Below, piece after piece: positions 8,328 to 54,561 of a DNA stretch of 64,000 nt (position 1 is its first letter; the number at the start of each line of letters is the position of its first letter). The position numbers were made by a program, and so were the translations under genes. Source of the stretch: Moniliella sp. 'wahieum'. Lineage: Eukaryota. The stretch spans positions 124,001-188,000 of the forward strand of contig RSEE01000022.1 of the NCBI GenBank assembly GCA_003971905.1. The letters are read 5' to 3'. A model generated the notes under the pieces. That model did not search any database and was not told the origin of the DNA. It worked only from the letters and a program-made list of their open reading frames with translations.

Positions 8328-10337
8328 GGCGATAAGAAGACAGACGTCGGCGATGCTGCTGCTGGCTTTTGTACTCGGCACAGCCAGCTGTGTGAAGAGG
8401 GTTTTGGGCTGCCTCCACCCGGGGCAGCTGGACGCAGGAGGAGGCCACATGCAGACGCAGAGCCAGGGCTTGGGCTTTGGCCAGCCCGTCTTCCCAGCGT
8501 CGGCACCTCCCGCACGGCGCCACTCTCCAGGCTGCACCTCGCCGAGCATGTGGTTTTTCCCGCGAAGAGATAGCCGCGTGTCTGGCCCGGAGCCCCGCAC
8601 GGCGCCTGTGTTGCCCGCGTCCATCCGCTGCTGCAGCTGGGTCGAGATCTCGAGAGAGCGTGCTGGTGCGGGTCACACGTGACGCACAGGGCCTGCCGGC
8701 CTGAGGGTGACATGGTGACAGTGCATGTGACGCAGGAACGAGCGATACGAACCACACTGCGCTGGTGCCCCGCGCGGGTATCAGTGCTCCCCACCACGGT
8801 TCGCTGGTGTGCATCGCCAGTTGCCCTCTGCGGGGGGACATGCAGCCGCCGCAGCAACCAGCGTGCAGCTCCACAGTGCCCTGGTTCCTGCCGTGTGGTC
8901 TTCGCATGCGATCGCGTGCCACGATGGATGATACATAGTCGACATGGTCGAATATTCCCCCTGTGCGCACGTCACGCGTCCCGCGTCACGCGTCATGCTC
9001 TTCAAGCGAAGGACAGGCAGTGCTAGTGGGATCCGCCATGTCACTGACACATGCCACGCTGACGCGTGACGCGTGACGTGTTATCTGCATCACACATCCG
9101 TGCCTTCGCGCACCTCTGCTAGGCGGGGGCAGAACTACGGGAGAGCGAAACGCAGAAGAAGTAGCTGGTGACTCCGGTGACTAGATGACTAGAAGTGTCG
9201 GAGGGGCGTCTCTGCCCTGCCCTGCACCACACGACTCTTCCAGCGGTGGTAGCAAGGCGAACGTTCGATGAACTTGTGTGCCCTGTGATGCATGTGATCG
9301 ATGATCGATGATCGATGGGCAAGCGGGGCTAGGCCAACGCCCTGCATCATGCACTAGCGCAGTGAGTGTGATGAATGACTCGGTACTGCTCCGGGGCGTT
9401 TCCTGGGTGCAACACACGACTATCCGGAGGTGGCGGCGAATCAGGCGAGCGCGGCCAAATGGTGGCCAGAATCCCCCGCTGCGACCCTGTGCTGCCAAGA
9501 CCAAGAGCCTCGGCCGCAAGAGGCTTCCTTGGTCCTGTGGCCCTGAGGCGCTGAGGTTTCCTCAGGCACTGGAGAACAGCCTATGCGTTCAGGATGCATG
9601 ATGCGCACTGTTGGAAGGGCGTGCTTTGCTGGTTAGCACTTGCGCACCTTCGGCTTTCCAGTCGGGGTTACGCCGTTTTTTCTTCCGCTGGCTGGTGTTT
9701 ACAAGTTGACGGTCGTGCCTGGAAAAGTTTCGAGCTGGTTTCGGCGCATTCAGCGAAGCCCTAACTAGTAACTAGAATTCAGGACGGCCTCAACTTGGGT
9801 TTGAACGCTGCGGACTGCAAAGCACGTCAGCGCGTCAGCCAACGCCCTGGCCCTCCCCCCGCAAAAAGATCGAAGCGTCGGGACCGCGGGATGGGTCGTC
9901 GTGACGCGTGAGCCGTGAGCTCAGCCTGAGCACTGTACACACCGCACACTACCACTACCCCAGACCTGAGCCTCAGGTCTCAGGCTCAGGCTCAGGCGCT
10001 CAGGCCCTAAAAAAGATCGGGTCGAAGGCCGTGACGCGTGACGCGTGACACATGATGCATGATGGCAAGTTGCTGGTTACCACTGACCGGTGACCTGTGG
10101 TTAGTGATGCATGATACTCTAAGCTTGCTCAATTTCAAACCTGGACCGCGGAGCTCAGGCGCTCAGATCTCAGAGGAACGGGGGCTGAGAATGATCAAAT
10201 TCCGCGCTCTTAAACCAAACCACGTGAGTATCACGCGTCACGTCCAGCTGTCCGATGCACTGTACAACACAACGGCATACCGTACAACCGATTTGTGCGG
10301 AGACGAGCACAGTCTCTTAGTTTGGCTGGTCTCGTTC

Positions 10338-10439
10338 CCATTTCCAATTTCTTCGTCCCGAGCGTCTCGCTCCTTGTCTTTCTTCGCTTCGCCCATGTCC
10401 TCTGCTCTTGCTTCTTCCCCACGACAATTGCTACATCCC
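10338..10439 (+). repeat. Dispersed non-coding repeat A (inverted copy at ~55461-55567)
   Basis: Shared core TCCCGAGCGTCTCGCTCCTT..GCTTCGC..TGTCCTCT..TCTTGCTTC.TCCCCACGA..TGCTACATCC. Confidence 0.8.
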
Positions 10440-10744
10440 TAGGCCTAATCCCGCTCTGGTCTCCTCTCATCGCTTTTTAGTCCCGGCTGTGAGACACGGG
10501 TGCTGCGCTGTGTTCCGGGTGTTGCTGGTTCGGTGTGGTTGCCTTTTTCTTCTCTTCAAGCTTCAAGAGCTTCAAGCTTGAAGCTTGATCGGTCACCGGT
10601 CACCCCATCTGTTTTCACCTTCTGTCCGCGTCTGCATCCGAACACGATTACCTCGTCGTCCCCTACACTCCTCAGACTGCTGGGGCAAACGGCTGCTGAG
10701 AGCTCGCTCACTTCCCACTCTGTTGAACGTTTGAGACCCGGAAT

Positions 10745-10990
10745 CCTGTGACATGTGATGGCCCTCGACGGTGATGCAATCGCATTCGTGTGGTGGCCAA
10801 CAAAGCCAAGCAACAAAACACCTACAGAGGTACAGCAAGCAGCCAGCAGTCGCTGTCCGGAAGCTATAATAGGCAATTAGCAGGCTTGGCGCTGAGCGGA
10901 ACAAGGAAGCAGAGGTGAGAAAACAACGGAATTCCTACGCCTGAGGCCTGAGAGGGAATGAAGTAACACACGACGAAAGCCACCCAGTGG
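10745..10990 (+). repeat. Dispersed non-coding repeat B (inverted copy at ~26640-26850)
   Basis: Shared blocks GCCCTCGA.GGTGATGCAATCGCA, CCTACAGAGG.ACA.CAAGCAGC, GAAAACA.CGGAA.TCCT, CCTGAGG, AGCCACCCAG. Confidence 0.8.
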
Positions 10991-11804
10991 CTCAGCACAC
11001 TCATCCAGTTCCATCACCATCCAGTAATTAGCAGCTCAGCCTGAGCGCTCATCGATCTTATCGGTCTCTTATCGCTTATCATACGTCACACGTCACATGC
11101 ATCATGCGGAGTGCACCATATGTTGCACCGGTGCTGAAATGCAAACTCCCATCATGCATTGGTAGCCTCGGCCCCTGACCCGCTCCTCTGACCGTCTGTC
11201 TGAGATCTGACCACCGCCAGTGGCGCAGTCTAACCTACTCTCTTGATAGATGAGTGTATCCTCTGGCAGAGAGGGTTACGTTTTCATATTAGCTGCGTCA
11301 ACTGCGAGAAGGGCTTCGGCCGCACGAGAAGACTTTTTGTTTGCACGTTCGGTGAGCGTATTACACCAGCTGTCCCGCGCGGCCCGATGAGAGGGGTGAC
11401 TATGAGGTCGGAGATGAGGGAAACAGAAACTCATTGGATGAGGAGTGGTGCCAGCGTGGGCACGTAAAGCAGACCACATGGCTACATGATCAGATCACGT
11501 ACCCACCCTCTTTTTCTCTCTCCGTCTTCTCTCCCCTCCTATGTCTACCAGTCTGCGTCTTCGGACTTCTCTGAATGAACACACCTCTCTCACTTCCCCT
11601 TAACAGGTTGAGCCCACAACTTCTGCTGGCAGACTTGCTCGCCACTCGCTGCCAGGCCCATGCGTACACTGTGCACACGTGAGTTGACCAAGGCTAGGGT
11701 AATACGTGATCGTAGGGGGAAACACACAGATACTGATGAGGGGACCAAATGGGGGTGGGCGAGAGCGTCAGAATTCGGAGTGAGAGTGCCCCACAGCTAC
11801 CTAG

Positions 11805-19410: not shown

Positions 19411-21394
19411 GGCAGGCTCGGCGGGCAGCAGAGGCGGTGGAAGAAAAGACAGGCGAGGCAGCCCAGAGGCGCACGAGGTGCGGCTGCTGCGTGCCGCCTG
19501 TGTCGCGCTGTGCCGCCCGGGTGCTGGCGTGCGCTCCGGCCACCGCGCCACGGCGCCAGCCTCGCCCACCCGGGCCTTTCCGCACACTGGCGCTGCGCTG
19601 TGCCCAGCCAGCGCAGTCCACTGCGCGGCACCTCGCCAGTCTTACTAATTGGCCCCAGCAGTGGCACCTGCGCGACGATGCCTGAGCTGAACTTTGAAAC
19701 CGAAGGGGCTGTGCAATTGAAACGGTCACGTGGTGGATGAGCTCAGCGGCGCCCTGGGCACCTGGTCCGATCTCAGATCCCAGGATCCCTCAGGGCCTCC
19801 GTATACTCAGTAGCCCAGACCTCAGCCTCAGGTCGCCCCCATCGTCTGGAGAGGCGCACCCCCTCCCCCTCCCCCCCGGCACCAACCTCCGCCGTCGCCG
19901 TGCCCGCTACAGATTACGGCTTGGTCCAACTTGCACCCGCACCCGCTTGTGCTCGGCCGAGCTCTTGCCCCCGACACAGACTGCAACCAGTAATTAGGTC
20001 GCCACTCTAGGCGTACTGCCCTAAAATACCAATACATGGCATGTGTGCATTCTAGAGCTTGAGATGACTGTGCGGTTGTGCCAGCGCTCCTGTGGATCCC
20101 GTCCAGCGCCACCAGCGACCATTATGGCCTGCTCTTCCTGCTTTCAATCAACTCAATACTGGCTTCAGGCCTCAGGCGCCTCGGTGCTCTTCTGGAAAAC
20201 ATGTACTACCGCAGCTCCGGAGGGTCGCCTCCACACCTCAACCGGCAGCACAATGTGCAAGAGTAATAACTAACTACCTTTGTCACCCTGTGCCACCCAG
20301 CAAAAGTGCTTCGCCCTCATAATCTGACTACTACTGTTTTCTCCCCACAGCAGCCCGCACCTCTCTTTTCTTCCACACTGTGTCGCATAGTGGCCCCAGC
20401 AACCAACAAAGCGGACAACCAACAACGCGGACAACCCGGACAATCAAAGCTGGTACTGTGCTTCTTCTTTGCGCTGTCCCAGGCTGCCCCCCTCTGCCCT
20501 CCTAGAGGAAATAGGGTCTTCTGATAGCGGAAACAGTTTCATGACAGCAGGCGGTCTCTGTTATAGTTATTCAATGATTAACTTGGCAGTCCAACAAATG
20601 ACTGGACAAAAAGACTTGGCTGCATCTCTGATCGATCTGGTCATTGAACTCAAAACTGACCCCACGCCCCCACACTCGAGACGGCAGACGAAATGAGCGT
20701 CATGCATTTCTTGATGACTGTCGCACGCACTCTCTCGAGATGAGGTCTCACTGTGGCAGAGGCAAAAACATGCAGCGATATAACGCGTAACGATCTGAGC
20801 GTTCAGTCGACGAGTAAGTAGCCCCAAAAGAGCTGTTTTCTTGGGATTATCATGATAGGATCAGAGAAGGGTGTTTTAAGAAGTAGGGGGGCTGTGTGCA
20901 ACTGGGAGTACACACGCTTTGTGGTTGGTCAATTCTCATCAATAAGGTGCTCCATCTGGTCATCACAGTCGTCTCCTAAGGCCTGGCTCAGATATATCAG
21001 GCCTCAGGGCCTCAGGCCACATCGACCTCATCGGGGCGAATGTAGGGATGGATCCGCAGACCAATCAACCTCTGTGTCTGTTGCTGCTGCCATCTTAGCT
21101 GGACGCTGGCGCTGAGCGCTCAGTGAGAGTCCGCCGTGAACCTGAATAGCCTGAGTGGGATTCGCAAGTGCGGGGTTTAATATTAACAAACTGGGCAGGC
21201 ACTGCGCCCCTTATCAGCCCTTACCTCATCAACGTTCAATGTTTAACAGGCTCTCATCGATCATCGATCATCGCATCGCCAGCCCCACACTCGTATTTAA
21301 AGCACAGCCTGCTGGGGAAAGGCGCTTAGCATCCCCTCTTCATCCCCACCATCTCGCCCCCAATGGAGCACCTCCCGCCTCCCCAGACCCCACC

Positions 21395-23628: not shown

Positions 23629-24830
23629 CGTCCATTTCATTGGCAGACTTAAGAAGGCTGGGACAGGGGAACGCTACGTCTAAACCTAACCGTTCATCTT
23701 GCGGGGGTTACTTAGGGCGCCACCAGGGTCAAGGAACCAGGGGGATCGCCAGGATATCAGGACCCTCCGGCTCACGCCATCCGGCCCGTACCCTAGGAGC
23801 GCGTATGGACACGGAGGAACGTGGTTAACATCCGAGCGAGGAACCATTTCCACTGAGACTTAGTAGCCAACTCCTTCCAATGCGCAAACAACTTGCTCGC
23901 CGTCTTGGTGCCGTAGTATCCTCGCGTCGTCAAAACCAGGGGGAAAACGTCTCTTGAGTGCGTCCCTGGTACTTGGCGTTCTTCTGCATTCTGCTTGTTC
24001 AAGCATCCGAAGCAGCTCCTTCTCTCCCGGCGTTCCAAGGGGGTTGCGGTGCTCGCATGCACCACCCTCCGGAACGCGCTCTGCGCTGCCAGTGATCCCG
24101 TGTCGCGCAGCGTGTGGTCGACCTCCATTCCGAGCCTCCGAGTGCTCCGGGTCCCATCATGCGGTAGTCAGTGCGCTGTGTCCTCTGTCTCCGGCCATCC
24201 TCGTCCTCCACCATTGGTTCGTTGTGGACATGGTGTCGGGAATGGAGCGTAGGAGCTGGAGAATGGGCTCCCGCACTGCGTCATGCAACGCTCCAAACTT
24301 GGCCTGGGAGCGAGTGCAATACATGATGTGCTCCAGCGAGGACATGACACCGCACTTGCACATGCTGCGCGTGGTGCGGCACAGCGTGCGGAGCTGGAGA
24401 CCAACCTGGACCTGCTGGTCGGAGAGCCTGAGGTACGGGACGGACGGAATGGCGGAAGCCAGTTGTGGCTCAGCGGTTGCTGTGCTCAACCACGTGACGA
24501 CCATCGGCAGCTCCAGCTTCTGGAGCAGCTCCTGTCGACTTTCTCCCACATCTCGCGCAGCGCTGGCTGTTTTGCTTCGTAAATGCGTTGGCCTCTGCTG
24601 TTTTGCGGTCCCGAACGGTCAACATAAGTGGTAATAAGATAGTCGTTGACCTCGTTGGCCGCGGCACGGGCGTGGGGCGCGATATACGAGTAGAGCGGGC
24701 TGCCGAATCCTCCTAGCCGGAGAGGCAGGCTCATGAGCATGTCGAAGTGGTCGTCCTTGGCACCTTGGGGATCCTCGTCGCCCCGGATCCGTCGGAACTC
24801 CGTACAGATGAAGGCATCGATCTCGGCCAT
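23629..24830 (-). mobile_element. 5'-truncated CRE/R2-like non-LTR retrotransposon (copy 2, longest)
   Basis: LPLRLGGFG, CKCGVMSSLEHIMYC, LHDAVR, RTDYR, MEVDHT, PLVLTTRG; short A-tract beyond the 3' end (T-run 23600-23606). Confidence 0.85.
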
Positions 24831-26639
24831 ATATCTAGAGCTTTCATCTCACAACCCACACAGTCTCAGCTCCATCAATCCATAACCCGCCCCAGTTCCG
24901 GTCTCAGACCAGCTTTGTCTCCCCCTCTGTATCTCTCTGACGAAGAATACTACCTACCGCACCATGTCATGCGCAAGAAGAGAAGTGGAAGAGGGTATGG
25001 CTTACGGTGAGGGAGTTGGGGGGATCAGTGGATTCTACTGTTGATACAGCGGATGCATACGCCTCTTTGGCTCAATGGTAAGGCGTCGCACTCGTAATGC
25101 GAAGATTAGTCGTTCGATTCGGCTAGGAGGCATTTTTTCCCCCTTTTTTTTTGGGGGGGGGGGTCGGCCTTGGATGAGGAAACCCAATAAAGAGTCGTGT
25201 CAAACCCAGGAAGGAGTTCGTCCAAGGCAGAATATTACGGCGATGAGAGTACCAAACAGCGTCGAATGCGTTGTATGAGTAGCAATATCGTGATGACACT
25301 GACGCATTGAACCTCCACGCGACCGACGCGTCTGTTGTTTGTGTATACTCGACTCTCTCTCCGCTCCGCTGGTCCACTGTGTCAGGAAAACGGGCAGTAA
25401 AAAGCCCAACGGAGCTTAAGCGATCACTTCGCCTTCCTGGCTTCGACCCCAAGTTGGTTGATGACCAACAGTTATGCCGTCTCGTCCTTGTTGGAGTTGA
25501 AGGTGAGAGAGCGGATTATTGTGGATCGATATGATAATGCCTGCTCAGAAAGGCGTGAGGATCGTGTCAGACTCACGCCGTGGATCGGATGCGAGCTCGC
25601 GGTGGCCAGCGCAACCACCAGTGCTATCACCTATATCACCAGGCCTATTACCTATATCCCTGTTGCGAAAATAGTCCCTTTTTGCCCTCAAGTGGATCGA
25701 TAATATAGCCACGCATGTGGCTACCGAATTGTCAGTCTCCTTGCGACGAAAGGCGCCCCGTAATCCTGTTTACCTTGACTCTCTAGGTTGCCCGTGCGGC
25801 AAACCGTTCCTCTTGTTTCCTCCTGTGTCCCCCGTTCTTCCTCTATTGCCTCGTTCCCCTATTAGTCCCTGTCTGTAAGCAATGGTTCGTGGTTTTCCCC
25901 CACGGTCCATTTTGGTGTCTCCCCCTCTACTGTGCCTGGCCAATGATTGATCAACCCACAGTGCAGGTAACTTCTCATCTAAGTCCCTCCCGGGCCCCTC
26001 GACCTTGTCCTATAGCTCCTCTATTCCTCTCTCAGCTTCTCAGCGAACCAAGCCGCGTGTGCCCTCCTCGCTCCACGTCGAAACCAAGTCCATCCGCCAC
26101 ATGGGTCCCCTTTCCAGCCGGGCCGCCTCCAGTCCCAGCCGAGCTTCAGCTCTGGTAGTGTTTGTCCTCCGCAGCCAATTCCTGTCCGTTATCTCCCGCG
26201 GATGCTTCGACACAACGCTACTACTGCGCAAAGCGGTGCTACGCAGCTTTTTGCAGACCTACAGCCTCCTCTGCTATCTATACGCCGAGAGGCCATTCCT
26301 TGCTCCTATAGCCCCGCTTGGACACACCAATCAGCTCATCAAAAGGACGTAACGATAACCATGAATTGAGAACCGAAGAACCTCCAACGGATTGTACCTA
26401 TAACCTCCCGAACGGGCCCCCTGACGGTGCCCGCCGGTGATTCACACTGTGTGGAGGAGCACTGCGGCGGATGTGGGGGGGGTTGACGGGTCTCGATCTG
26501 ATGCTCAAATCCGGAAGCTCAACTCAGATCTCACTTCTTCAGGTATTGCGTCCATAAATCCAAATTATTCAAGCTTTGAAAAGCCAAAACGAGCGGATCT
26601 CATCTCTTGGCCGTGTATAGTACTTTGGGGAGGTTCTGT

Positions 26640-26850
26640 TGAGCTGGGTGGCTCGTGCCTTTGGCCAATGCCCCTTCAGTTCTTCCTCAGGCCAAGGAGT
26701 TCCGCTGTTTTCCCTCTCCTGTTTTTTCTCATTGTCCTGCAGCTTAGCCCCTGATGGCGACTCGCTGCTTGATGTTCCTCTGTAGGCATTGCTGGTTGCC
26801 ACACCACCACCACCAGTGCGATTGCATCACCTTCGAGGGCTATCAGGACC
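26640..26850 (-). repeat. Dispersed non-coding repeat B, second copy
   Basis: Reverse complement aligns by eye with 10745-10990. Confidence 0.8.
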
Positions 26851-27389
26851 CCATACAGGTCTCATCTCACAGGTTCTATCGTCCCACACTTTGTCGCTCA
26901 AGCTTCATTTATAATGTAGGCTGGAATGCCGAACCTTCAAGAAGCTAATAGGTCACTGCTAGGACCTGCTAGGCCTCAGATTAAGCCAACAGGCTCACCC
27001 TGGTCCCCCACAGGGCGATGGCGAGCCCCGGTAGGTTGGTATACTGAGAGACTCAGATATATTTTCAGGACAATTATTACGTGATCGGTGACCTCACTGG
27101 TCAGGCCCTATACATGATTCAGATATCAGAGAGCGAGATAGCGCACGGGTTCTCGAAACTTATTACCACCGTGGCCGAGGCTGCCGGAGGGCGATAAAGC
27201 TTAAAGGGACTATTTGCTATGACTATGTGAGAGAGACGTGAATTGCGGGTAGTCTCGTGCGAACTGCGTTGGCGGCAATTTCCCGACGATGAATTTCATT
27301 GCTCGGAGCAATTAACTGTGTCACATTCTCCGCACCGCTCTTGAAACATCCATGTCCACAAACATATGTATATCCACAAAGTACGTACA

Positions 27390-28980
27390 AGTTGTACTCT
27401 CAGATCTCAGATCTCGTATCTCAACGAGATTCTTTCAAATACTAGTACCACGCACTCTTGCCTGCTCTTTCATGCATCTGTGCATCACAGTATGAGTATC
27501 CACACAGACGTTGCACAGTAGATAACGTCGGTAACGCGGGTGCGCAGAGGTTCTCTGCATTCCCCACGTAGACGCTCCCGGACGTTCGCTGCTTTCTGAT
27601 GTCTGCGTGGTATTTTTGATTACGCGTTATTACGCGATACGCTCGGGTTAGTACGCATTACTAGTTACTAGTATAGGCCTTAGGCTGGAGCCCCAAGCCT
27701 CAGGGACTTACGCGTCTAACGTGGGCTGCTGTCTGCCTGACAAGTACTCAGCGTGTACTCATCTGCATCAGTACACCGTTAGTTAGTATCCCGTAGGTAG
27801 GCGTCAAAGGACTATACAGGGATCGATTACTGATGGATGATGGATGACATGATGCATGATCGAGACAATCGATGTCACGATCACGCAAACCTTCATGCAT
27901 CTGTCGCCCAGTCACGCAAATCAACCGTCGGACGCTGGACGACTAGTTAGCCCGATTAGCGCTTAGCCGGCCTCAATTCAACATTCGTAATTCTTGACGC
28001 ATGAGGCCGAGGCTATGAGGGTGGCCCAGTGGCTACTGAAAAAGAGAAGTAAGGTTGTGCTCAAGTCCTTCAAGACTATTGGTGCTCAGGCGCTCAGGCG
28101 CTCAGGTGCGGTGTGACATGTGCATGTGAAGTGTGTTGCCCCGCGGGCATCTCTTCGTGTGGCGTTTTAATACTAGTTGCTGCACTCCACTGTAAGTACT
28201 AACGCTACTATATCTGCCCCGGCATGCCTGCGGAGCGGTGATGTTTGTTCCAAGCGGCGGGCACAACGTGCAACGAACACCGGGTACAAGGCGGCCGGAG
28301 CAAGACCGAGCGACGGCAGGCGACGGCAGCAGTCTTGGATTGTGGTGAAGAAGGGTGGAGACAACGCCTTCGTGGATTTTGCTGGAGAAGTTGACCGGGT
28401 GATGAACGCGTCCGTGACGCATGTGACGTATGAAATGCATGATGCACGACGTGTGATCATGTGATAGTGCAATAGCCACATGTGACGCGTGACGCTCGAT
28501 GCTCGATGCATGATGCTATATGATATATGACACATGGCGCATGACGCGTGACGCATGACGCGTGACGACCCACTTGCGGTGCCCCGGCAGGACGCAGGAG
28601 GGCCCACCAGCTGCACCGCACTGCGCTCGTGCCTGCTGAGCGTGCTGTCCTGTCACATTTCAAACTGTGCATCGCACCGCCGGGGTAGCACAGTCATATT
28701 TTTTTTCCCCGTTTTTTCCTCCACGCCGGCCCCCAGGCCGCTCTGATCCCGCCGGCAGCGATGACTGTACTGCACCACTCCCGACGGGCACGGCGGGGGT
28801 GGGCAGCGCTTGAGACGTGCCCCCAGTGCCCTCACCTCAGTCTTCCTCACGCGTCAAGCGCCTCACAGCCGCATCCTGCGCTCAGTGCTTTTGTTCGGTT
28901 GGTTCCACCTGGCCGCCGAGCGGGAGCCTTGCAGCTTGAGCGCCAGAGCGTTCACGTTCAACGTCGAACGTTGAACAGCG
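27390..28980. repeat. Cluster of TNA/palindrome heptamer arrays upstream of the MFS gene
   Basis: TCTCAGA x2 at 27398-27411; TTA-CGCG-TTA-TTA-CGCG ~27620; TTA-CTAG-TTA-CTAG ~27658; seven in-register heptamers 28519-28567. Confidence 0.85.
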
Positions 28981-31999: not shown

Positions 32000-32641
32000 T
32001 CATGTACACCCATCATCACTCATTCACCCCATTCCCTGTCTTTTCGCAATGTTTCCCCCCAACTGGTTCAGTCCCTCGTTGCCTCTCTCTGTGCTACTGT
32101 GTGCTATTGTGCTGCATTAGCTGTTTTCCATTTACTCTGGTTGCGTTTCCTGCTGTGCTATTCCTTGTCACCCTTCCCTTCAACCCGGTATCGTGCATCC
32201 CTCTTTAATGGACACTAAAACCCTGCAGTGCCCTTGGCATTACTTTATTGCAGACTTCCATACGAATGTAGTTTGTTGCCCCCCTGCGGAAGAGTGTGTG
32301 AAGCTTGAAGAATACAATCTCATGGAAGGTTCTTTTGACACGTGTCGACTCGCAGTATTCAAGACGCGGTGATCCGGGTACCCGGCACCCTTCAAGATGA
32401 GTTGGTGGCTAAGCGCGAATTGATGAGTAGTGCCCTTCTCGTTTACGTGGACGACAGAACGTCTTTGTGGTGTACAAGCCCAATCCACGATCATTAATCA
32501 TTTCTCGTTTTCATATCGGCGAGGCACTACTGGACATCAGCGATCGTCGATCGCACGGCCCTCTCCGTTATTGAATCGGCTGGTGGCGTAGTCACGCGTC
32601 ACGCGCGTGTCATGCATCCTTCATGGATCATGTGCATCATG

Positions 32642-32697: not shown

Positions 32698-33131
32698 ACA
32701 TGAGTCACGGCTCGCTCCTGTCGTGGTCGGGAAGCGCTCACCCGTCAAGCGTGGCGTCAGCACGTCGATGCCGACCCAGGGCTCAGGCGCTCAGGCTGGT
32801 TAATTACAACCCCATTACCTCCAGCAGCGTCTCCGTTGGGTTCTGAGCCAGAGGGCTCAGGGACTAGTGAGTGCTCAGTTTTCGACTCCCCTGCGGCTCT
32901 ATCTCTCTCCGCGTGGGCCAGGCATGGAGACGGCCAAATCTTTCTCAGAATCGATTGCGATGCAACTCACCCAGGCAGGGGGCAGCAAATGCTGGGGTTT
33001 ACAGAGCACAGGGCGCGGCCATGGGCGGACAAGAGACCGGTAGAGTACAGAGCCCAGTCGGGCCAACCTTTGCTCTCATACGGACATGGAAGGTGTGGGG
33101 GGGGAGGGGGGGTGGGGGGAAGCTAACGCAG

Positions 33132-36100
33132 CTAAGCCTGGGCCGGCGCTGGGGCCGGAGAGGGGTAGGACACAGCGAGGGTGCCCTTAATGTTGTCGAG
33201 GATCCGCGCAATCTCACCCGGCACCGGGACCTGTAGCGCCGGGGCTGGGCGCGCAACAGGCGCGCCATGGTGTACAGCGTGCCCCAAGGGTGCGGGCGCA
33301 TGACCACAATCCGTTCGAGCAGGACGCGGAGGATCTGGCCTTGGACTTGGGCAGGCACGTCGGACGCCTCTGGGGTCGAGCCAGCAGGCGGGGCAGCAAA
33401 GAGACGGACGAACAGCGTCGAGGCAAACTGCATTGAGGCCGAGGGGAAGCGCAGCTGGTTGGCCAGTGCCGAAAGCAAAAGGTAGAGCGATGCGGGTCGA
33501 GCTGGGACAAGAGCAGGCTCACCACCTCCCCGGCCTTGGTTGCTGTCGCTTCCTCCTGAGCTGCCGCCACCCGTTGGCCCAGCGCTTCAACCAGGGCATT
33601 GAGGATGGGCTGAACAACCAGCAGAGCCTGTTCCTCTTCCTGCTCCTCAGTCTCGATAGGGGCAATCGTTGTGATGCTGACAAGATGGGCCACCAACGTG
33701 TCAAGCGGGGCGGGGGTAGCGTCGCTAAAGCATTTGTCGAGAAGGGCTTTGACGGTAGCCCAAACGGGGCTTGCGTTTGCCTCCAGCGTCGCTGGCGCCG
33801 AGGCGGGTTCCATCCTAGCCTCGGGCAGTAACGCCAGATCGACAGTTGGGTCGAGCGGGTCGGGGAGGCGAAGCTGGCGAGGGTAGGCACAGAGAAGCAC
33901 GTTGCGCAGCTGGACAAACTCGCGCGGGATCAGATCGCAGAGCGGGATGGCATAGAAAGCCAAGAACTCTGGGAAATCGTGCAAGAGCAGCATAAAGATC
34001 CGGATCGCGCCGAGATAAACCGACTGGATTGTCTCTGCCCGTGCGCCGACACGACGGACAAGGGCCAAGAGGCGAACTTGGGCCTGCAGCAGCGGGTAAA
34101 ACCATCCCAGCCCTGACCATCAGGGGCAGAGAGAAGATGAGGAAGGAAGGTACGGTGCGAGATGAGCGACATCCAACTGTGAGTGTACCCAACAAACAGA
34201 CTCGGCTGCAGGGCCAACAGGCTCTGTGCCACCGCCACCAGGCAGGACACGTAGCGGTTGCCCAGCCCGGGCGAGGCTTGCTGAAGCAGATGAAGAATGG
34301 AGCTGAACAGGCGGTAGAGAGCCTTGCCCGCCTCCGGCTGCGGATGCACGTCCACAAACACCAATACAATTACCAGCAGCATCTTGTGCAGCAAGCCCAC
34401 CTGGTTGCGCGAATGGAACGTGGTCAGCAGCACCACCAACTGGGCCAAGGCGTCGATCGGAGTGTAGACGGTCTGGCTCTGTTCGGCACCCAAGATAGTT
34501 TGAAGCGCATAGCCCTTGACGCACTAGGTGCAAATGCGGAGGAAGTGCGCCGTGTTGGCTTCACCCTTGAGGACCCCAGCTTCCTGCGCACGGCCAACAA
34601 ATTCGACAAAAGCCTTGTCCACGTTGACGGCCTCTTCGTAGCAAGTACCCACTGGCCAAACCAATCTGACATCACCTCACGCACTGCCGGATCGTCCAAC
34701 GTGGCCGCCTCGCCAATCTGCTGCCAGAGCCCATCGTGGATAACCGATTTAACGCTTACAAAGACACATGTTAGTCATCAATCCAACAAGAGGAAGGGAA
34801 CAACTTACGAATCACTCGCTCTTCCAGCCTCGGAGGTGGCACGAAGCATGGCAACAATGTGACGCAGCTGGGTGCGCGTCGCGACCGTCTTGGTGGCCGC
34901 CTGGACCAGGGCGGCATTCACATCCGCCTTCTCCATGCCCGATTGGGCCCACTGGGCATCCACCTCGCCGACACGGACCAGCTGATCCTCAATCAAGGCC
35001 ACCATGCAGGGCACGTGCCTCACATCCCACTGTCCATCCCCGTAGACCAACCAAGCGGCCACCTCACCTTGAGCAGCGGGTGAGAGGGCACACAAACGCT
35101 GGAGAAGAGTGACCAGCGCATTGGTCGCTAGCTTTTCCTGCGCGGGCGTCCTGTCTTCCACTGTTGTCCACAGAGAACCACGACTTTGGAGGCAAACATG
35201 AGTGCCGTCTCGTCTTTGCGGGGCTGCTGCCGGACAAGCTCCGTGACTGACAGGAGCAGCGTCGGCAGCTCATTGTCCGGCGGTAGCTGGGCCAGTGTAG
35301 TGGCTTCCTCTCCGTTGTGCGGTACGGGCAAGACGAGGAGGCGGTCAAAGTCGGATCCAAACCGGTTGAACAGCTGCAAGGCAAATGACCCGTCGGCGGC
35401 AGGGCGAGGGGCAAGAGACCGACCAAAGTCATCGTACACCCGCAGCTGCGCTGGAGTGAGACCGTCGGGCTGAAGGCGAAGCGAGTCGGCAGCGCCGAAG
35501 CATAGGCAATGTGCACACTTTGGTCTGGGTCGGCATACGGTCCCGGTCCCGCACGCGCCGCAAGATGCGGAGCAAGAATCGCATCCAAGTCGGCCACTGC
35601 CTTGTATTGCGCCGCCCGCTCAACCATCTTGCTCGCCATGTCAACGTTTTCGTTCATAATGCTCGCCAAAGCATCAACAGGCAGCGAGGTCTCATTAAAC
35701 CCGCCATTGAGGAAGATGCGCTGAGCATGCTGGACCATCGACGTGCGAGCGGATCCTTCGACGTCACGTGCGATCGACCCCACCACATCTTTGGCCATCT
35801 GGTGCGCGGCGTGGGACAACTTGGCCGGGTCCGACTCAAGGGCAAAGTCCTTCAGGACCAGTTCCTTGGCTGATAAGTTACCAATCGTGGCCGAGCGCTC
35901 CACCACGGGAGGAGTAATGTCTCGCACGGCGCGTTCGATCGCAACACACACATCCGCTTCAACGTCGCGTTGGTCGCAAACATGTTCAGCGTGGGCGGGA
36001 TGATAATCAACTCGGGCAGGGAAGCAAACATGCTTTGCAGCAGTGCCGAGTAGGACATAGCGTCCTGCTCCAGCACAGGCTCGGGATGGGTTCGACCGGT

Positions 36101-39100
36101 CCGGTCGAGGTCGGGGCAACGGCTTCTTCCTCAGCACCATTATCAAGCAGTGAGGTGGGTTCGAGCTCGGCCATGTTGATCTCGAGAGCCTTGCACATGA
36201 CCTCAATCTCAAATTTAAGATTGAGCTTGAGACCCGCATAATGGTAGAGTTCTACCAGCAGGGCCAACACTGCCGCCAACCACGGATTGGGCAGTTTGAA
36301 TACTGTGCTCGTTTTGCACTGCTCCAGCACTTGCACACGAACGGAATGGCGGCGATGAGGCGGCCCGACTTGTACCCTTGTAGCAGCAGCTCCTTGAAGG
36401 CGATGTTGCGATATTTGATGGGGATATTGCGAGCAAGGGTCAAGCTGCCCAACCACGATGCCAAGTTCTTGAGCAACGTCCGATCCGACGACGACGTCAG
36501 TGTCGTCTCATTGTTCAGCAATGCCTTGATCTTAATAATCGATTCCCGCAAGATGTACCGCATCAAGCGCGGACCGCCTTCGATCCCATCAATCAACGAA
36601 GCATAGAGTGATTATTGGGTTCGATGGAGACACGCTGGAGAACAAGGTAGTGGGCAAACCAATTGTACAGCTCGGGAGCAACCAGGGACTTGGCGTCGCC
36701 CAGCTTGGACTCCAAGTTGGACTTCGACAAGTTGTTAACCAAAAAGAGAATTTTGTCGCTTACTTCGTCCGTCGGCTCCTCCTGATCCTCCTTGTCGTCC
36801 AGCTCGTCGGCATGAATGGCGGTAAACGGTTCAGAGGTGATAGCTGGCCACCGCGCGGACCGTTCCATCCTCCTCTGGCGCGGTTGGATCGCTTGGCCCA
36901 CCACTCGGACGGCCAGGGGGGCGCTGCTGGGCTTCGTGGATCATACGAACAACGTCCGGCCGGCCCTGTGTAATAGCTGGGATTGCAAGCAGGGCTTGGG
37001 ACAACGGGGGCCACTCGAGAGGCGCCGAGCAAAGTTCTGGAGCGCCTGAATCCCGAACGTAAACAGCGGCGATGACGGCGGCTTCCGCAATGCATCCAGC
37101 ACATACCGGATCGCAATACCGAGCGGAATGTAGTCGACGAACTCCTCGTTGATGATTTGGCCAAAGACGGTGGCAGCAATACCCAGTTCGCGCGGAGGGT
37201 AATCGCGTTCAAAGCAGCGGTATTCATCAAATAGAGTATGCACCAGGCAAGCGAACAACGTTTTTGCAGAGGGTCATCGCTCTCCTTGGTTCGCTTGAGG
37301 AGCGCCATCATATCTACCTTCATCGAACCCGAATAGAGGGTGCGATAATAATCGTCCGCTTCAGCTTGGATCTCAGGAGGGAAGGAGGCGACTTGGAGCC
37401 CAGGCTCCATGTTCTCGCTACCCGGTACGAGATTCATGAGCCGTGGGTGGACTTGGAGGCAGACGTTGCGGACCGATTTGAACGAGTCAATCTCGTCCTC
37501 ACTCATCTCGTCCCCATGGGAGCGCAAAGCGTAGAGGAAGGCGGCCACCGTCGACGTGAGGTGAGCGAGGTGACCCGTGGTGGACGTGTTACCGGCCAAT
37601 TCGTCTTGGGCTTTGCGCTCAAGGAAGTCGAGTGCTGCACGGACAAAGGCGTGAGGGTGCGCTGCAATGCCACGGTCCAGCCACTGCGGGAGGTCGAACT
37701 GCTTGTTCCGATCAGCCAGGTTGGCCAACTCAAATACAAAGGCCACTTCTGCGGGGGGTGGATGGCGTGATCGCGTCGGGTCAGTGGTCTGGGACAAAAG
37801 CCCAAGCTCTTGAAGCACAGAGAAGATCCGAGGCAGGTTGCCCGGCAGCGTCGCCACGTTTGTTGCCAGCGCACGCAGGGCAAACATGGGATTGGCCTGG
37901 AACAGACACCAGAGCGCAAGCTGAACATTGGGCTGGAAGGCCGAGAGCACCACACTGACTAATTGAAGGCAAAAATTGGTGTGAATATCGGGCCAAGGGG
38001 GCGGGACTTGGCCAAAGCCAATGAGGATCAAGTCGGCGTTCTGCTTGATGGCCTTGTCGACCAGGTCGGCTACAATAGACCGCAGCACCGCATTGTCCAC
38101 GCTCAAACCAGCGGATAGCAGGTTAGCCACGTCTTGGTTGTTCCAGCGCGATCCGGCCACTTGACGGGCTTGGGCTTGCACGGTGGCAACAGCCGCTTCC
38201 GTTGCCACAGAAGCCGTCCCGTTCGCCTGGGCAGATGGCAACCGCAGTGTGCCCGGGTCGACAATGCGATGCAGGACCCACGTGGACATATCGAATGTGT
38301 GCGGGTCGAGCAGCAGGAGGCCGCGGATGAGGATGAGCTGGGCCAAGGGGTGGCGCCAAGCATGGTCCCACAATGCGTCCAACACCGTCGGATGGGCAAG
38401 CCTGCGTGCATGGCTGGCAACGACAGCAAGGCCATAGGTTTGCTCCGAGTCAGGCTGGGTGGCTGGGTGGCGATCTCATCAAAGAGTGCGACTACGTGGG
38501 GCCAGCTGATGTTGGCGTTGAGGGTGCCGATGCAGGGGCCGAGGCTGGGCCAGTGGACTGCGTACTTGCTCTCAATGGCCGACACGGAGGGCTCGACGGG
38601 TTCGCAGAGCAGCGCAAGGAGCAGCTGGGCTGGCATGGTCGTCGGGGGGGACGTGGACGTGCGTGATATGGAAGAGAGCGAGGGCAGCATGGAAGACAGG
38701 GACGGATTGAGTGGCGAGAGGCCCAATGCTGGCGAGGACGTCGGCGGCGGCGGGTAGGCATGAGGCTGTGGATAGGTGAGTACAGAGCAGGGGCAGGAGC
38801 GAGGAATGGGAAACGTACCGCAGGTGGGGAATCGCTTGGGCCAAGGCCTGGGCAGCGAGATCAGAGCCGACGCGCTCGATGGCTGCGCGCACGAGGGCGC
38901 GCTGGAAGACACGGGGCAGGCCAGGGGTGTCGGGGGCAGAGTCGGAGAGGACGCTGGTGAAGAGGGCGGAGAGTGGACGGAGCGCGAGCTGGGCCTGGTC
39001 GGGAGAGGGAGGGGTGGCGAGGGACAAGGGGGGGACCTGCTGGTGCAGTGCGGCGAGGGCGGAGGCAAACAAGCGTTCGTCAGGAGAGCCGGCCGAGTCG

Positions 39101-39144
39101 CCAGCGGCGGCGACTCGGCGGGAGAGTGCGCCGCCGTCGAGCAT
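33132..39144 (-). CDS. NOT1: CCR4-NOT scaffold subunit Not1
   Basis: LVLQRVSIEPNNH, LLKNLASWLGSLTLARNIPI, LKLNLKFEIEV, VERSATI..ELVLKDFALE, LLHDFPEFL, QLRNVLLCAYP, LLERIVVMRPHPWG; many frameshifts. Confidence 0.95.
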
Positions 39145-39246
39145 GGCCAGACGACGGCAAGGGGAGGGCGGTGGGGGTGTAGAGGGGGAGCGGCGGTGGG
39201 GGAGGAGGGGGGGCGGGTGTGGTGGGGGGAGGCAGTGGAGAGGGCG

Positions 39247-39311
39247 ATGGCAATGGCAATGGCGATGGCGATGGCGATGGCGATGGCGATGGCGATGGCG
39301 ATGGCGATGGC
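39247..39311. repeat. (ATGGCR)n hexanucleotide microsatellite, ~11 units, in NOT1 5' region
   Basis: Direct reading; lies ~100 bp upstream of the NOT1 ATG. Confidence 0.95.
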
Positions 39312-39413
39312 CACGGCGCTGCGGGCGCATGCAGCAGGGGCCACTGCCAACCCTAGCGCCCAGGAAGGATTGTGGCTGATGTAAGGCGGCGGGGGGGTGG
39401 GCTGGGCGGGAGG

Positions 39414-39449
39414 GCTGACGTCAGCGCGGGCGGGGGGCGTGCACGTGAC
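39414..39449. promoter_or_regulatory. Candidate bidirectional NOT1/ATG2 promoter elements: GCTGACGTCAGC (CRE/ATF-like) and CACGTGAC
   Basis: Palindromic motifs in the 440-bp interval between divergent start codons. Confidence 0.4.
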
Positions 39450-39584
39450 CAGGCGTCGAGTAGTCGTCTGATTAATGAGCTGCTCGTGGCTAGTGCTAGT
39501 GATTGCTGATTGGGCAGCTAGGACTCCCAGATAGGAGCTGCCATCCCCAGCGCCCCCCCCACACAGCCCCCCAGCCCTGTCGCC

Positions 39585-42500
39585 ATGCTCGGCCTGGCCA
39601 GCTGGACTGGCCCCGGCCCCGTCCAGCGGCGCGCGGCGGCCTACATGCTCCGCACCCTCCTCGGGCCCCTCGCACCCGCCCTCGACGACGCCCAGATCGA
39701 CGCCGCGCTGCTCGCCGGCCGCCTCGACGTGCGCCGCGTCCGCCTCGACCCAGCCGCACTCGCCCACCGCTGCCCCCTCCCCCACCTCGTCCCCACCCAC
39801 GCCACCCTCGCCGCCCTCCAGCTCCAGCTGCCGCCCCTCGCCCAGCTCTGGTCCGCCGACGCCCCGTCCGCATCGTCCTCGAGCAGCTTGAGCTCCACGC
39901 CACCCTCGCCCTCACCCCCGCCTCGGTCCCCACCCCGCCGATCTCGCCGCCAGCATCCATGCTGCAGCCACCGAAGCCGTCCAGTCCGCTGTTGCCGAGT
40001 CTGCTCCCGCCGCCCCGCCTGGCTTTGCCGCCGCTGGACCCAGTCGCTCCTCGCCCGCATCCAGATCGACCTCGACGCTGCCATCATCCACCTCGCCCCG
40101 CCGCCCACCGCACCCGCCGCCCCTACCCTCGTCCTCACTCTCGGCCCCCTTCGCATCGGCCCCGACCCCCGCGGCGACCCCCTTTCCCATGCATTTGCCC
40201 TTGACTCGCTCCACCTCGCCCTGGTGCCGCCCGATCCTGCTTCCGCCTCCGACTCGGACTCCGACCAGGGCGACGACAACGAGAACTACCTTGCTCTGAG
40301 CTCAGCGGTGCTCGATCTGCGCCAAAGCGTCTACCACGACGCCATGCCCGACACCCCTCTGTCCCGGCAAGAGCCCACAACCCTCCTGTCCATCACTGCC
40401 GACACGACAGGCAAAGTCGGCGTAGCTCCCGCTTGCTCTGGCACCATATCTCCCCAATCTGGCACAGCACAGATAGCGTCCATCGTGCTCCACCTCGACC
40501 CCGACACCCTCGCGACTGCTGTTGCCCCATGGCTTGATATTGTTTTGTCGTTGCTCCCTGCCTCTCCTGGGACCGCCCCTCGCCCCGCGGCATCCTCTTC
40601 GCCACCTGCGTCTGCTTCTTTCTGGTCTTTCACGCTGCAGCGTGCCATGGTTTCCTACACTCTGCCCACATATCCCCCACTCCTTTACTCTCCAGCAGCT
40701 GGGCGCCGAGCTTTCGGATTCTTGCCATGTCACACTTGGCTCCCTTTCGCTCAGCACCGACGGGACTCAAATCCTCTCCATTGGCGAGCGGGATACACCG
40801 GCACTAAGGGCGGGCCAAGATGCCCACACGGGCTGGACGATCGCCTTGGCTGCCATCACTGGTTCCCTGCCCATCCCCTACCTTGGCCAGGTAGGCAGCA
40901 GTCTCCAAACTCTACTCTCCAGTTTCTCCCGCAGTGCCCTGCCTCCCTCGGCCCCCTTGTCATCTCCATCGCCACCGCCAACTGCCGCCCCGCCAGCCAA
41001 GATCCAGCTTACCTGCCCTAGCCTCGATCTCTCCCTCCCCATCCCGCGGCATAGCCATGCACCACGCACATTGCTCCCCTCGCGCGCAGGAAAGTACCGT
41101 CTGCACCTCAATTCTATTGTGTTGGCCTCTCACCCGGACCAGCCTAAGGGAACAAAACGCAAGACCCACTTTGCGCCTGTCGCCCCCCCCGCTGACTGGA
41201 CATTGGCTGTACAGGAGATGGTCATGTACCATACTCCGCCTAGCGGAGAGGAGGAAGGGATCGTGCGTCTTCCTCAACCAGCAGTGGAGGTTGCGATTCA
41301 CCCAGAGGGGACCGACATTCACCTGGCCCAAGTGGAGGCCCGGCTTGACCCGGTGCGATGGGCCCAACTCGAGATGGCGCTGGATGATTTGACCTGCTGG
41401 CTGCCGAGGTTAGTCCTTTGGAGGAAGGACAGATGGCCTCCGAACCAAGTGAGGAAGGAGCACGGCCGGTGAAAGTGAAGATCGACCACATTTGCACCGA
41501 GCTCTATTTCCCTCGCTTGACAAGCAAGGAGAAGGTGGTGCTTCTGGCGTCGGGCGTGGACGTTGTGGGCTGGTGGCATAGATGCATCTCTGTCTCAAGT
41601 GGGTGTGACCTACTTTCCGAGCGACGATGGCGGCACCCCCCACCCGCTCCTTGTTGCTTCGCCCGTGGATCAGGCCTGTGGCACTGTTCAGGTCCGTACC
41701 TTGACCACAGACACAGGAAAGACAACTTGCCTAACGTTGGAGGTAAGGGATGCTTTGGCGCACGTGGTGCTAGACGCGCCTTATATTGCTCAGCTGGCTC
41801 AGCTCGCCCACACGCCTGAAGATACGTTTGTCCATGTCACACCTTCGGACCGGACCGAGGTACGGGTGCGGATGGCCAATGTTCAAGGGGGTTGACACCG
41901 GGTGTAGACCAAGCTGTGATGGGGGTGCTAGCGTCTTCGGTCGAAGCGGCAGTGGACCTGACCCCACTAGGAGTCCAAGCAGCTACAGCGAACTTATGTG
42001 CCCGGCTCCTCGTGTTGGACAAGGGCGGACCAGACCTGCTCCACACCTTGCTGGCTCATACTGGTACACCGCTCAGTCTGTGGACCCAAACTGGCTTTGC
42101 CCCCCTGGCTCAAATTGTGCTGAAGGGCGCGTTTTCTCCGGCGTACATTACCCTCTCCCATGCCCGTGTCCGGTTGACGCTAGCGGCCGACACCTTGGCC
42201 GTGGTGACGCAGTTTGCGGCAGGTCTTAGCTCGGCGAACAGTTCTGACGAATCCAGCTCCTCCACAACCTCCTCTCCTCGCACCTTTAGGGCACAATCGG
42301 CTTCGCCGGCCCTCTCTCGTCTCCAAGGCATGAGCGGGACAGAAGAGGAAGAGTTCTTTGCGCCGCCTCCAAGCTCCACCCCGACACCAGGACCGGCGAT
42401 GGAAGAGGTGGAGATCGAGCCTCCCCTTCTGCTGGGACAAAGTGTCTTTTTGGATGTCCAAGAAGCTGTTGAGGGAACTGCTTCGACACGACCTGTTCGC

Positions 42501-48271: not shown

Positions 48272-48717
48272 GTAGGCGTGTGGGAGGGCGGCGGCGAGGG
48301 CGGGTGGGTGGATGGCGAGATTGGTGCTGGGCGTGGATCCTTGCGCGGGTGAGCGCTGACTATGACTGGGGCCGACGGCTGATCCACTCGTTGTGCAGCC
48401 CTGCGCCTCAGGCTGAGGCCTGGGCCTGGCCTCAGGACCGCCGATCTCAGTCCGACTCAGGCGAGCCCTCCGACGCCCCCCGGCGAGCCAGCCCATCCAT
48501 AGTAGGGTTGCCCTCCTCTGGGGCGCGTGCGGGCGGAAAGCGGGGGCGGAATGGATTTTTGCCTGAGGCCTTCGGGCTTTCGGTGCGGCGAGCGCTGGCC
48601 ATTTGAGAGAGACACGTGCCCCCGCGCCGCAGCCACACCCCCCAGCATTCACCATCCGCACCCGCCTCCCCACCACCACGAGCGACCCCACCACCACCCC
48701 AGCTCGCTGGCCTGGGC

Positions 48718-53646: not shown

Positions 53647-53833
53647 AAGCGGGCTATCTGGATACGGGCCGTCGTTGTTGGTGCAATGCAGTGGAACTTG
53701 GATTTGGGTGTTGATCGCGTAGGTTGGAAGCCGAGGTGGAAGCGGCATATTCGGCAGGTGCCGGTTCCGGAGAAACGTGGAGACGGCTCTGAGCAGACAG
53801 TTGCATCCATTTTTTTATTATAGGCCTAGGTGG

Positions 53834-54561
53834 CGTCCATATCATTGACAGAGCCTAAGGCTGGGACAAGGGGAAATGCTACGTCTATTGAAACCGAACC
53901 GTCCATCTTGCGGGGGTTAGTTGGAAGCGCCAACAAGGTTAAGGAACCAGGGGGATCGCCAGGATATCAGGACCCTCCGGTTCTCGCCATCCGGTCCCGT
54001 AGCCTAGGAAGCGCGTGTGGATACGGATGAACACGAGGTTGACATCCGAGCGAGGAACCATTTCCATTGAGACTCAGTACTAGCCAAATCCTGACAATGC
54101 GCAAATATCTTGCCCGGCGCTGTCATCTTTTGGTGCTGTAGTATCCTCTCGCGTCGTCAAAACCAGGGGGGAAAACGGCTCTTGAGTGCATCCCTGCCGT
54201 ACTTGGCGTTCTTGTCGCATTCTGCTTGTTCAAGCAGCCGAAGCAGCTCCTTATCCCGGTGTTCCAAGGGTGTCGCGGTGCTCTTCTGATGCACCACCCT
54301 CCGGTACGCGCTCTGCGCCTCCTGCGATCCCGTGTCGCGCAGCGTGTGGTTTACCTCCATTCCAGATCCGCGGAGTGCTCCGGGCCCCATCACGCGGTAG
54401 TCGGTGCGCTGTGCCCTCCGTCCGCGCCTCGTCCCATCCTCTTCCTCCACAGTAGGTTCGTTGCGGACGTGGGTGTCGGGGACGGAGCGCACGAGCTGGA
54501 GAATGGGCTCCCGCACTGCCTCATGCAACGCACCAAACTTGGCCTGGGAGCGGGTGCAATA
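53834..54561 (-). mobile_element. 5'-truncated CRE/R2-like non-LTR retrotransposon (copy 3)
   Basis: YCTRSQAKFGALHEAVREP..RTDYRVMGP..MEVNHT; 3' UTR followed by AATAAAAAAA (T-run 53810-53816). Confidence 0.85.

Follow-up and report, generated by a model that had tools for sequence, protein, structure and literature searches.

There is strong support that 7-bp units have been written at TNA sites across the window, the whole 64,000-nucleotide stretch of DNA analyzed here. Two of these units, which we call scars, lie in a dispersed repeat on the forward strand (10721-10997, copy 1) that has a diverged relative on the reverse strand (26871-26637, copy 2). As a repeat pair, the two copies are ordinary remnants of transposons. 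Our analysis adds that we read both as solo LTRs, each with a target-site duplication of its own, and that they are too diverged from each other to serve as a before/after pair. The best explanation for copy 1, to which we give somewhat better than an even chance, is that an old solo LTR was scarred by the excision of a cut-and-paste element, itself unseen, that has NNTNANN as its 7-bp target and leaves its flanks capped as hairpins.

Heptamer units in the spacers of the window

The window is a compact, intron-bearing eukaryotic stretch with a G+C content of ~52-69%. Its housekeeping-type genes include those for ribosomal L18, a POT transporter, a BAR/PH protein, a V-ATPase subunit, an MFS transporter, Not1, ATG2, a GHMP kinase and an RCC1-repeat protein. 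The units follow the grammar xyTNA–y'x'–xyTNA, in which a 5-mer ending in TNA is followed by an inverted copy of its first two bases and then by the same 5-mer again. Counted in both orientations, exact 12-mers of this form occur 79 times, whereas simulated sequences contained 0.34±0.59 (Markov order 1) or 0.38±0.56 (order 3) and never more than 3 (50 simulations each). The recurrence of TNA 5-mers is concentrated at a spacing of 7, with 103 cases against 4.7±2.2 expected. The counts at spacings of 5, 6, 8, 9, 10 and 11 are 9, 20, 25, 32, 13 and 7, and those at 5 and 11 are near chance (at 11, 4.5 are expected). Tandem Repeats Finder also reported many short period-7 arrays. Plain 7-bp tandem duplications with a non-palindromic filler are rare, only 6 being found compared with the 79 grammar sites.

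The composition of the units is equally constrained. The 4-base core between two identical TNAs is palindromic in 84 cases and non-palindromic in 63, where a ratio of ~1:15 would be expected by chance, and TNA pairs share the same N (84+63) about twice as often as they differ in it (74). The palindrome mirrors the flanking dinucleotide in 67 of the 84 sites, on the left in 25, on the right in 30 and on both sides in 12; the remaining 17 mirror neither flank. Among the 84 TNA-palindrome-TNA sites, 75 have G or C as N. On the forward strand the center of these 84 sites reads TGA in 49 and TCA in 26, an asymmetry that may be the effect of a few long arrays. There are in addition arrays of period 8, at 28084-28106 (GCTCAGGC, three units), 9178-9193 (TGACTAGA, two units) and 59267-59289 (GGTGACTC, three units). 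They look like the 7-bp unit with one extra base, and the spacing of 8 is found for 25 TNA 5-mers with 5.4 expected.

The grammar sites are clustered in spacers, at 8984-11199, 20165-21261, 27195-28556, 32299-32592 and 57398-63390, and the genes are almost free of them. The first of these spacers surrounds copy 1 and holds 27 of the 79 exact sites. Several scar-rich spacers are located upstream of genes (POT, V-ATPase and MFS). The clustering suggests a preference for open chromatin or promoters.

Other repeats in the window provide a comparison. A 1.1-kb dispersed repeat is present in three copies (1555-2647 on the forward strand, 23629-24729 and 53833-54559 on the reverse strand) that are ~84-85% identical. 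The copies share their 3' end and differ in the point of 5' truncation, which gives the repeat a LINE-like look; it consists of non-coding-like DNA and has no match in Pfam. The indels that distinguish the three copies measure 2, 3, 4, 5, 7, 8 nt and other lengths, and none is of the TNA-palindrome type. With a total length of ~2.9 kb and an identity of ~85%, the three copies hold 0 scars. The process is therefore regional, which the excision model outlined below does not explain by itself. A tRNA gene, the one tRNA-Thr (CGU) at 25061-25132 (forward strand), is located ~1.5 kb from copy 2 of the LTR-like repeat and ~330 bp from a copy of the 1.1-kb repeat, with mobile-element litter around it. 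A second short dispersed homology, pyrimidine-rich and 124 nt long, connects 10336-10453 (forward strand) with 55569-55446 (reverse strand; 78% identity, E 4e-20); its first member lies ~270 bp upstream of copy 1, and there are no scars within the homology. The segment 46352-46484 is a 67-bp tandem duplication with 91% identity.

A repeat pair with the ends of solo LTRs

The initial annotation described 10745-10990 as homologous to the reverse complement of ~26640-26850, and this homology is well founded. We found that 10725-10997 on the forward strand aligns with 26876-26637 on the reverse strand with a Smith-Waterman score of 97, while 200 shuffled controls gave a mean of 22.4, a standard deviation of 2.35 and a maximum of 32. 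The strings that had been quoted from the two copies are also present where they were placed. Blastn identified a 92-nt core (75% identity, E 1e-10) and a second, colinear segment of 28 nt (86%). A global alignment of the two copies has 174 matches, 55 mismatches and 16 gaps, giving an identity of 76%. The extra bases are in copy 1 at gaps of 4, 4, 1, 5, 2, 3, 11, 2, 1, 4, 3, 5 and 3 nt and in copy 2 at gaps of 1, 4 and 1 nt, and none of the 16 gaps is 7 nt long. Conservation between the copies is blocky, with four well-kept blocks and variable stretches between them.

No third copy was found in the window, either by blastn or with an nhmmer profile built from the pair, for which the next match had an E value of 2.8. 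The flanks of the two copies (±2-3 kb) show no further colinear homology, and all that they have in common is short heptamer arrays; on this ground we rejected a wider segmental duplication. A metagenome scan with a 24-nt conserved block of the LTR returned 0 stretches. One metagenome contig (L001:601-623) was considered as a relative and rejected as a chance match, since it has a 23-nt LTR block in common and nothing else aligns.

The boundaries of the homology suggest what the copies are. Copy 1 (277 bp) begins with TGTTG and ends with CAGCA, and its TG..CA ends are abutted by a 5-bp direct repeat, CACTC, at 10716-10720 and 10998-11002. Copy 2 (235 bp) runs from TGTGAG to CAACA on the reverse strand and is likewise bordered by a 5-bp direct repeat, GAACC, at 26876-26872 on its 5' side and at 26636-26632 on its 3' side, identical when read on the same strand. 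The latter repeat is 7 nt long if the first and last bases of the LTR are counted. The complete termini are TGTTGAAC…GCTCAGCA in copy 1 and TGTGAGAT…GCTCAACA in copy 2, and both copies have a short imperfect terminal inverted repeat, TGT(T)GAG…CTCA(A/G)CA. The 3' end of the homology is exactly the CA in both copies, and the 5' end agrees within 4-9 nt; the 5' end of copy 2 is uncertain by ~9 nt, because copy 1 also has a match to the GAAC that lies immediately beyond it. In a random control, TG..CA ends with a 5-bp repeat were found within ±20 nt at 1.28% of 5000 loci, which corresponds to ~1.6e-4 for both copies jointly. On the basis of these termini and duplications, we read the two copies as independent solo LTRs of the same or a sister family that were inserted separately, with 10745-10990 forming the body of copy 1. 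We rejected the possibility that they form the LTR pair of a single element, since they are 16 kb apart in opposite orientation, with housekeeping genes between them and a target-site duplication each. A full-length retroelement, or a reverse transcriptase or integrase domain, was found neither in a set of 25 ORFs nor in 107 of the 145 ORFs of at least 130 aa (all but the 38 in 33002-41409 and 48607-50455).

At its start (26861-26870, reverse strand) copy 2 reads TG-TGAGA-TGAGA, in which five bases at a TNA site are duplicated in tandem. This duplication is a possible +5 variant of the scar, with the reservation that a spacing of 5 is found only 9 times in the window compared with 4.6 expected.

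The two scars of copy 1 and their age

Copy 1 contains two exact grammar sites and copy 2 contains 0. In 277 bp, ~0.002 such sites would be expected by chance, and both sites in copy 1 are therefore products of the scar process. Whether the comparison of the copies records their insertion is a separate question, and the answer differs between the two sites.

The site at 10940-10951 (forward strand) reads CCTGA-GG-CCTGA, with the GG at 10945 mirroring CC, and copy 2 has a single CCTGAGG. About 7 extra bases had been claimed for copy 1 at 10939, a claim that closer alignment did not confirm in this form. The strings quoted for this site are 25 nt in copy 1 and 19 nt in copy 2, so that the net difference is 6 and not 7, and the anchors GCCTGAGG and AGCCACCCAG are separated by exactly 31 nt in both copies. 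Under three parameter sets, a pair-HMM gave a posterior of only 0.1-0.4 for 10945-10951 being unaligned; it favored an alignment of the second CCTGAG of copy 1 with ACTGAAG of copy 2, leaving 4-5 nt extra in copy 2. Four scoring schemes put the effect of removing GGCCTGA from copy 1 on the global score at 0 to +2, and this removal ranked 121-134 among the 271 possible 7-nt removals. The equal anchor spacing, the low posterior and the poor rank together indicate that the pair does not show an insertion in copy 1 at 10940. The alignment on which the claim was based is a possible one, judged by the two sequences, but not the better one.

The site at 10747-10758 (forward strand) reads TGTGA-CA-TGTGA, in which the CA at 10752 mirrors TG, and it is absent in copy 2. 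It is not a plain tandem repeat, as the next two bases are TG and not CA. Here copy 1 has 21 nt and copy 2 has 12 nt. Once the 7-nt unit is taken out, AATCCTGTGATGGCCC aligns with GGGTCCTGATAGCCC except for one TG, and the simplest reading of the 9 extra nucleotides is that they represent two events, of 7 nt and 2 nt. The posterior for the unit being unaligned is 0.4-0.7 by pair-HMM, and its removal ranks 4-53 of 271. The earlier proposal of an extra TGA-CATG unit at 10744 thus retains moderate support as to the unit being extra in copy 1, and requires correction as to length, which is 9 nt rather than 7. A third, near-fit candidate at 10722-10734 (forward strand), GTTGA-AC-GTTTGA, is located at the 5' end of the LTR. 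It carries one extra T and is ambiguous: its posterior for being unaligned is 0.5-0.8, yet its removal ranks only 112-167 of 271, and its GAAC is also found beside copy 2.

We consider it likely, though not proven, that copy 1 gained its scars in place after the two lineages had split. The 55 mismatches in 229 aligned pairs (24%) correspond to ~12% substitution per lineage. By our own arithmetic, the probability that a 12-mer dating from the split is still exact would be ~0.22, and ~0.05 for two of them. The local density of scars is in line with such a gain. The flanks of copy 1 contain 16 sites in 2 kb, which predicts ~2.2 sites in the copy, where 2 are observed; those of copy 2 contain 5 sites in 2 kb, which predicts ~0.6, where 0 are observed. 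This density argument is not significant, the chance of finding 0 scars in copy 2 being ~0.5.

An older origin of the units is unlikely in our judgment, but it accounts for part of the data. Both units would then be ancestral to the LTR family, and an accumulation of small deletions, insertions and substitutions would have removed or obscured them in copy 2, so that the pair records decay. The favored alignment at 10940 speaks for this alternative, as it pairs the second CCTGAG with ACTGAAG, places the 4-5 extra nucleotides in copy 2 and keeps the anchors 31 nt apart in both copies. Tandem 7-mers, moreover, are easily deleted between their 5-bp direct repeats. It is more difficult to reconcile with the preservation of both units as exact 12-mers in spite of the 24% difference in aligned pairs, with the lack of any trace of the TGTGACA unit in copy 2, and with scar counts that track the density of the local spacer and not the family.

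The annotation had further proposed that the units were written into existing DNA at TNA sites after the copies diverged. Writing at TNA sites is borne out window-wide (79 sites where ~0.35 are expected). The timing is not settled by the pair: with only two copies, 76% identical and separated by 16 gaps, gain in one is indistinguishable from loss in the other. A bias toward 7-bp indels, whose absence from the family the annotation had named as a ground for refutation, did not appear in the pair (0 of the 16 gaps). As dated insertions, solo LTRs are nevertheless the right clocks and the right before/after controls for the scar process, and dating the scars calls for a family with more or younger copies than the present pair.

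A model for the scars and its relation to known systems

The TNA-centered symmetry, the identical N and the derivation of the palindrome from either flank (25 left, 30 right) are consistent with duplication of a 7-bp target and subsequent excision by way of hairpins on the flanks. In our model, a cut-and-paste element would insert at a TNA-centered 7-bp target, xyTNAcd, and duplicate it. Upon excision both flanks would be capped as hairpins, and each hairpin would be opened 2 nt off its tip to give 4-nt self-complementary 3' overhangs, cdd'c' and y'x'xy. One overhang would be ligated to the opposite recessed 5' end and the other clipped as a flap. Either product, xyTNA-y'x'xy-TNAcd or xyTNA-cdd'c'-TNAcd, would be 7 bp longer than the original target, the added part being a TNA and a 4-bp palindrome in which one flank is mirrored. 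Because every scar would provide a fresh target, arrays could grow. A target that was already palindromic would let the overhangs anneal, and the 12 sites mirroring both flanks would be accounted for in this way.

Variants of this scheme fit less well. Retention of both overhangs would add 11 bp, and a spacing of 11 is at chance (7 vs 4.5). By reasoning, a 3-bp TNA duplication with flank hairpins would give TNA|TN'A junctions and not cores that mirror the flank, and a 5-bp duplication with one-sided P nucleotides would require an asymmetric target.

Two features to be expected of excision footprints are present. Remnants of a duplicated target stand on both sides (an identical TNA, and xyTNA at +7), a pattern to which both copy 1 sites conform, and inverted copies of the flank (P nucleotides) are found at the junction in 67 of 84 palindromic cores. 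A matching donor element with TIRs, a transposase and the same target and target-site duplication length was not found within the window. A transposase domain was seen in none of the ORFs scanned for retroelement domains (the 25, and the 107 of 145 of at least 130 aa, all but the 38 in 33002-41409 and 48607-50455). With no transposase domain and no full-length retroelement in these ORFs, the donor element is hypothetical. It is possible, in our estimate with a little less than an even chance, that spacer DNA has been entered and left many times by a cut-and-paste element not yet described, or by a nuclease that derives from such an element through domestication. Every visit would write a 7-bp scar of fixed form and thereby supply the next target; arrays would grow in this way, and old solo LTRs would be overwritten. 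If true, mutation of this kind would propagate itself and shape promoters.

A host process that involves no mobile element is, we think, improbable. A cellular nuclease or repair pathway would make hairpin-capped breaks at NNTNANN in open spacer DNA, and the breaks would be healed with a 7-bp scar. The strongly regional distribution of the scars would suit such a process, as would the lack of a donor element or transposase in the ORFs scanned in the window. The duplicated TNA with the same N (84+63 vs 74) argues against it, for this is most simply a target-site duplication and needs an insertion step; we also know of no host process of this kind.

Ordinary replication slippage, with the heptamers as short microsatellites and palindromic 7-mers merely prone to it, is less credible still. 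It could account for GCCTGAG-GCCTGAG in copy 1, a perfect tandem duplication of a 7-mer that is single in copy 2, and for the many short arrays of period 7 reported by Tandem Repeats Finder. It cannot make TGTGA-CA-TGTGA-TG, which duplicates no pre-existing 7-mer, because the filler CA, an inverted TG, is absent from the template. Slippage would add an exact copy of the adjacent unit, which is not what is seen at 10747 or in the 55 of 67 flank-matched palindromic sites that match one side only. It also predicts neither the TNA center nor the palindrome, and the tandem duplications with a non-palindromic filler are too few (6 vs 79).

Finally, it is very hard to believe that the copies are paralogs of a non-coding module with a function (an RNA gene or a regulatory block) and that selection keeps the heptamers as protein-binding sites: the blocky conservation in four well-kept blocks and an 8-bp end stem that RNAalifold finds conserved on the opposite strand would agree with it (covariation from two sequences being uninformative), but each copy has its own target-site duplication and TG..CA ends, the heptamer units are not common to both, Rfam returned no family at threshold for the copies and sub-threshold chance matches only, and the copies show no unusual fold (z-scores +1.34 and -0.78), which led us to reject a non-coding RNA reading.

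If the units are indeed excision footprints, the genome would preserve a dense archive of natural hairpin-opening and end-joining events, unusually uniform in their outcome, and the element responsible would belong to a class that, by its target and the length of its duplication, we cannot match to any named superfamily. To our knowledge, no superfamily combines a 7-bp target-site duplication, a TNA-centered target and flank hairpins. Our literature search, outside which much of the subscription literature falls, found no genome-wide heptamer grammar of this kind in fungi.

Comparison with known systems places the repeat and its scars in different company. The copies resemble solo LTRs of the Ty1/copia or Ty3/gypsy type in their TG…CA ends, short imperfect terminal inverted repeat and 5-bp target-site duplication, in their size (235-277 bp here) and in being dispersed in spacers in either orientation. 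They differ in that there are two copies only, 76% identical, without a full-length relative (PBS, PPT, gag-pol), so that the superfamily is not assignable. The scars share with microsatellite slippage short head-to-tail arrays of a 7-bp unit, but the first added unit has an inverted dinucleotide that is absent from the template. PIF/Harbinger elements prefer TNA/TWA targets and make a 3-bp target-site duplication. They have the TNA triplet at the center of the target in common with the scars. However, their 3-bp duplication with complementary overhangs leads to precise excision, with no flank-mirroring 4-bp palindrome and no 7-bp period, and the N of the scars is G or C in 75 of 84 sites.

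The scars also resemble hairpin-type footprints, those of Ac/Ds and other hAT elements, Transib, MULE and V(D)J coding joints with P nucleotides, in which remnants of the duplicated target surround a short flank-templated palindrome. The hairpin-type transposons (hAT, Transib, MULE) have targets of 8, 5 or 9 bp, compared with the 7-bp, TNA-centered target here. Published work describes hairpins on the flanking DNA, Artemis-type opening and end-joining footprints for hAT, Transib, RAG1 and a MULE (PMC5499845), and, for Ds in Candida, footprints in the form of short deletions or palindromic P-nucleotide insertions (PMC5873905). Unlike these footprints, the scars form arrays, without a donor element in the window, and one outcome dominates among them: a gain of 7 bp, in which one side has exactly 2 P nucleotides and the other has lost 2 nt.
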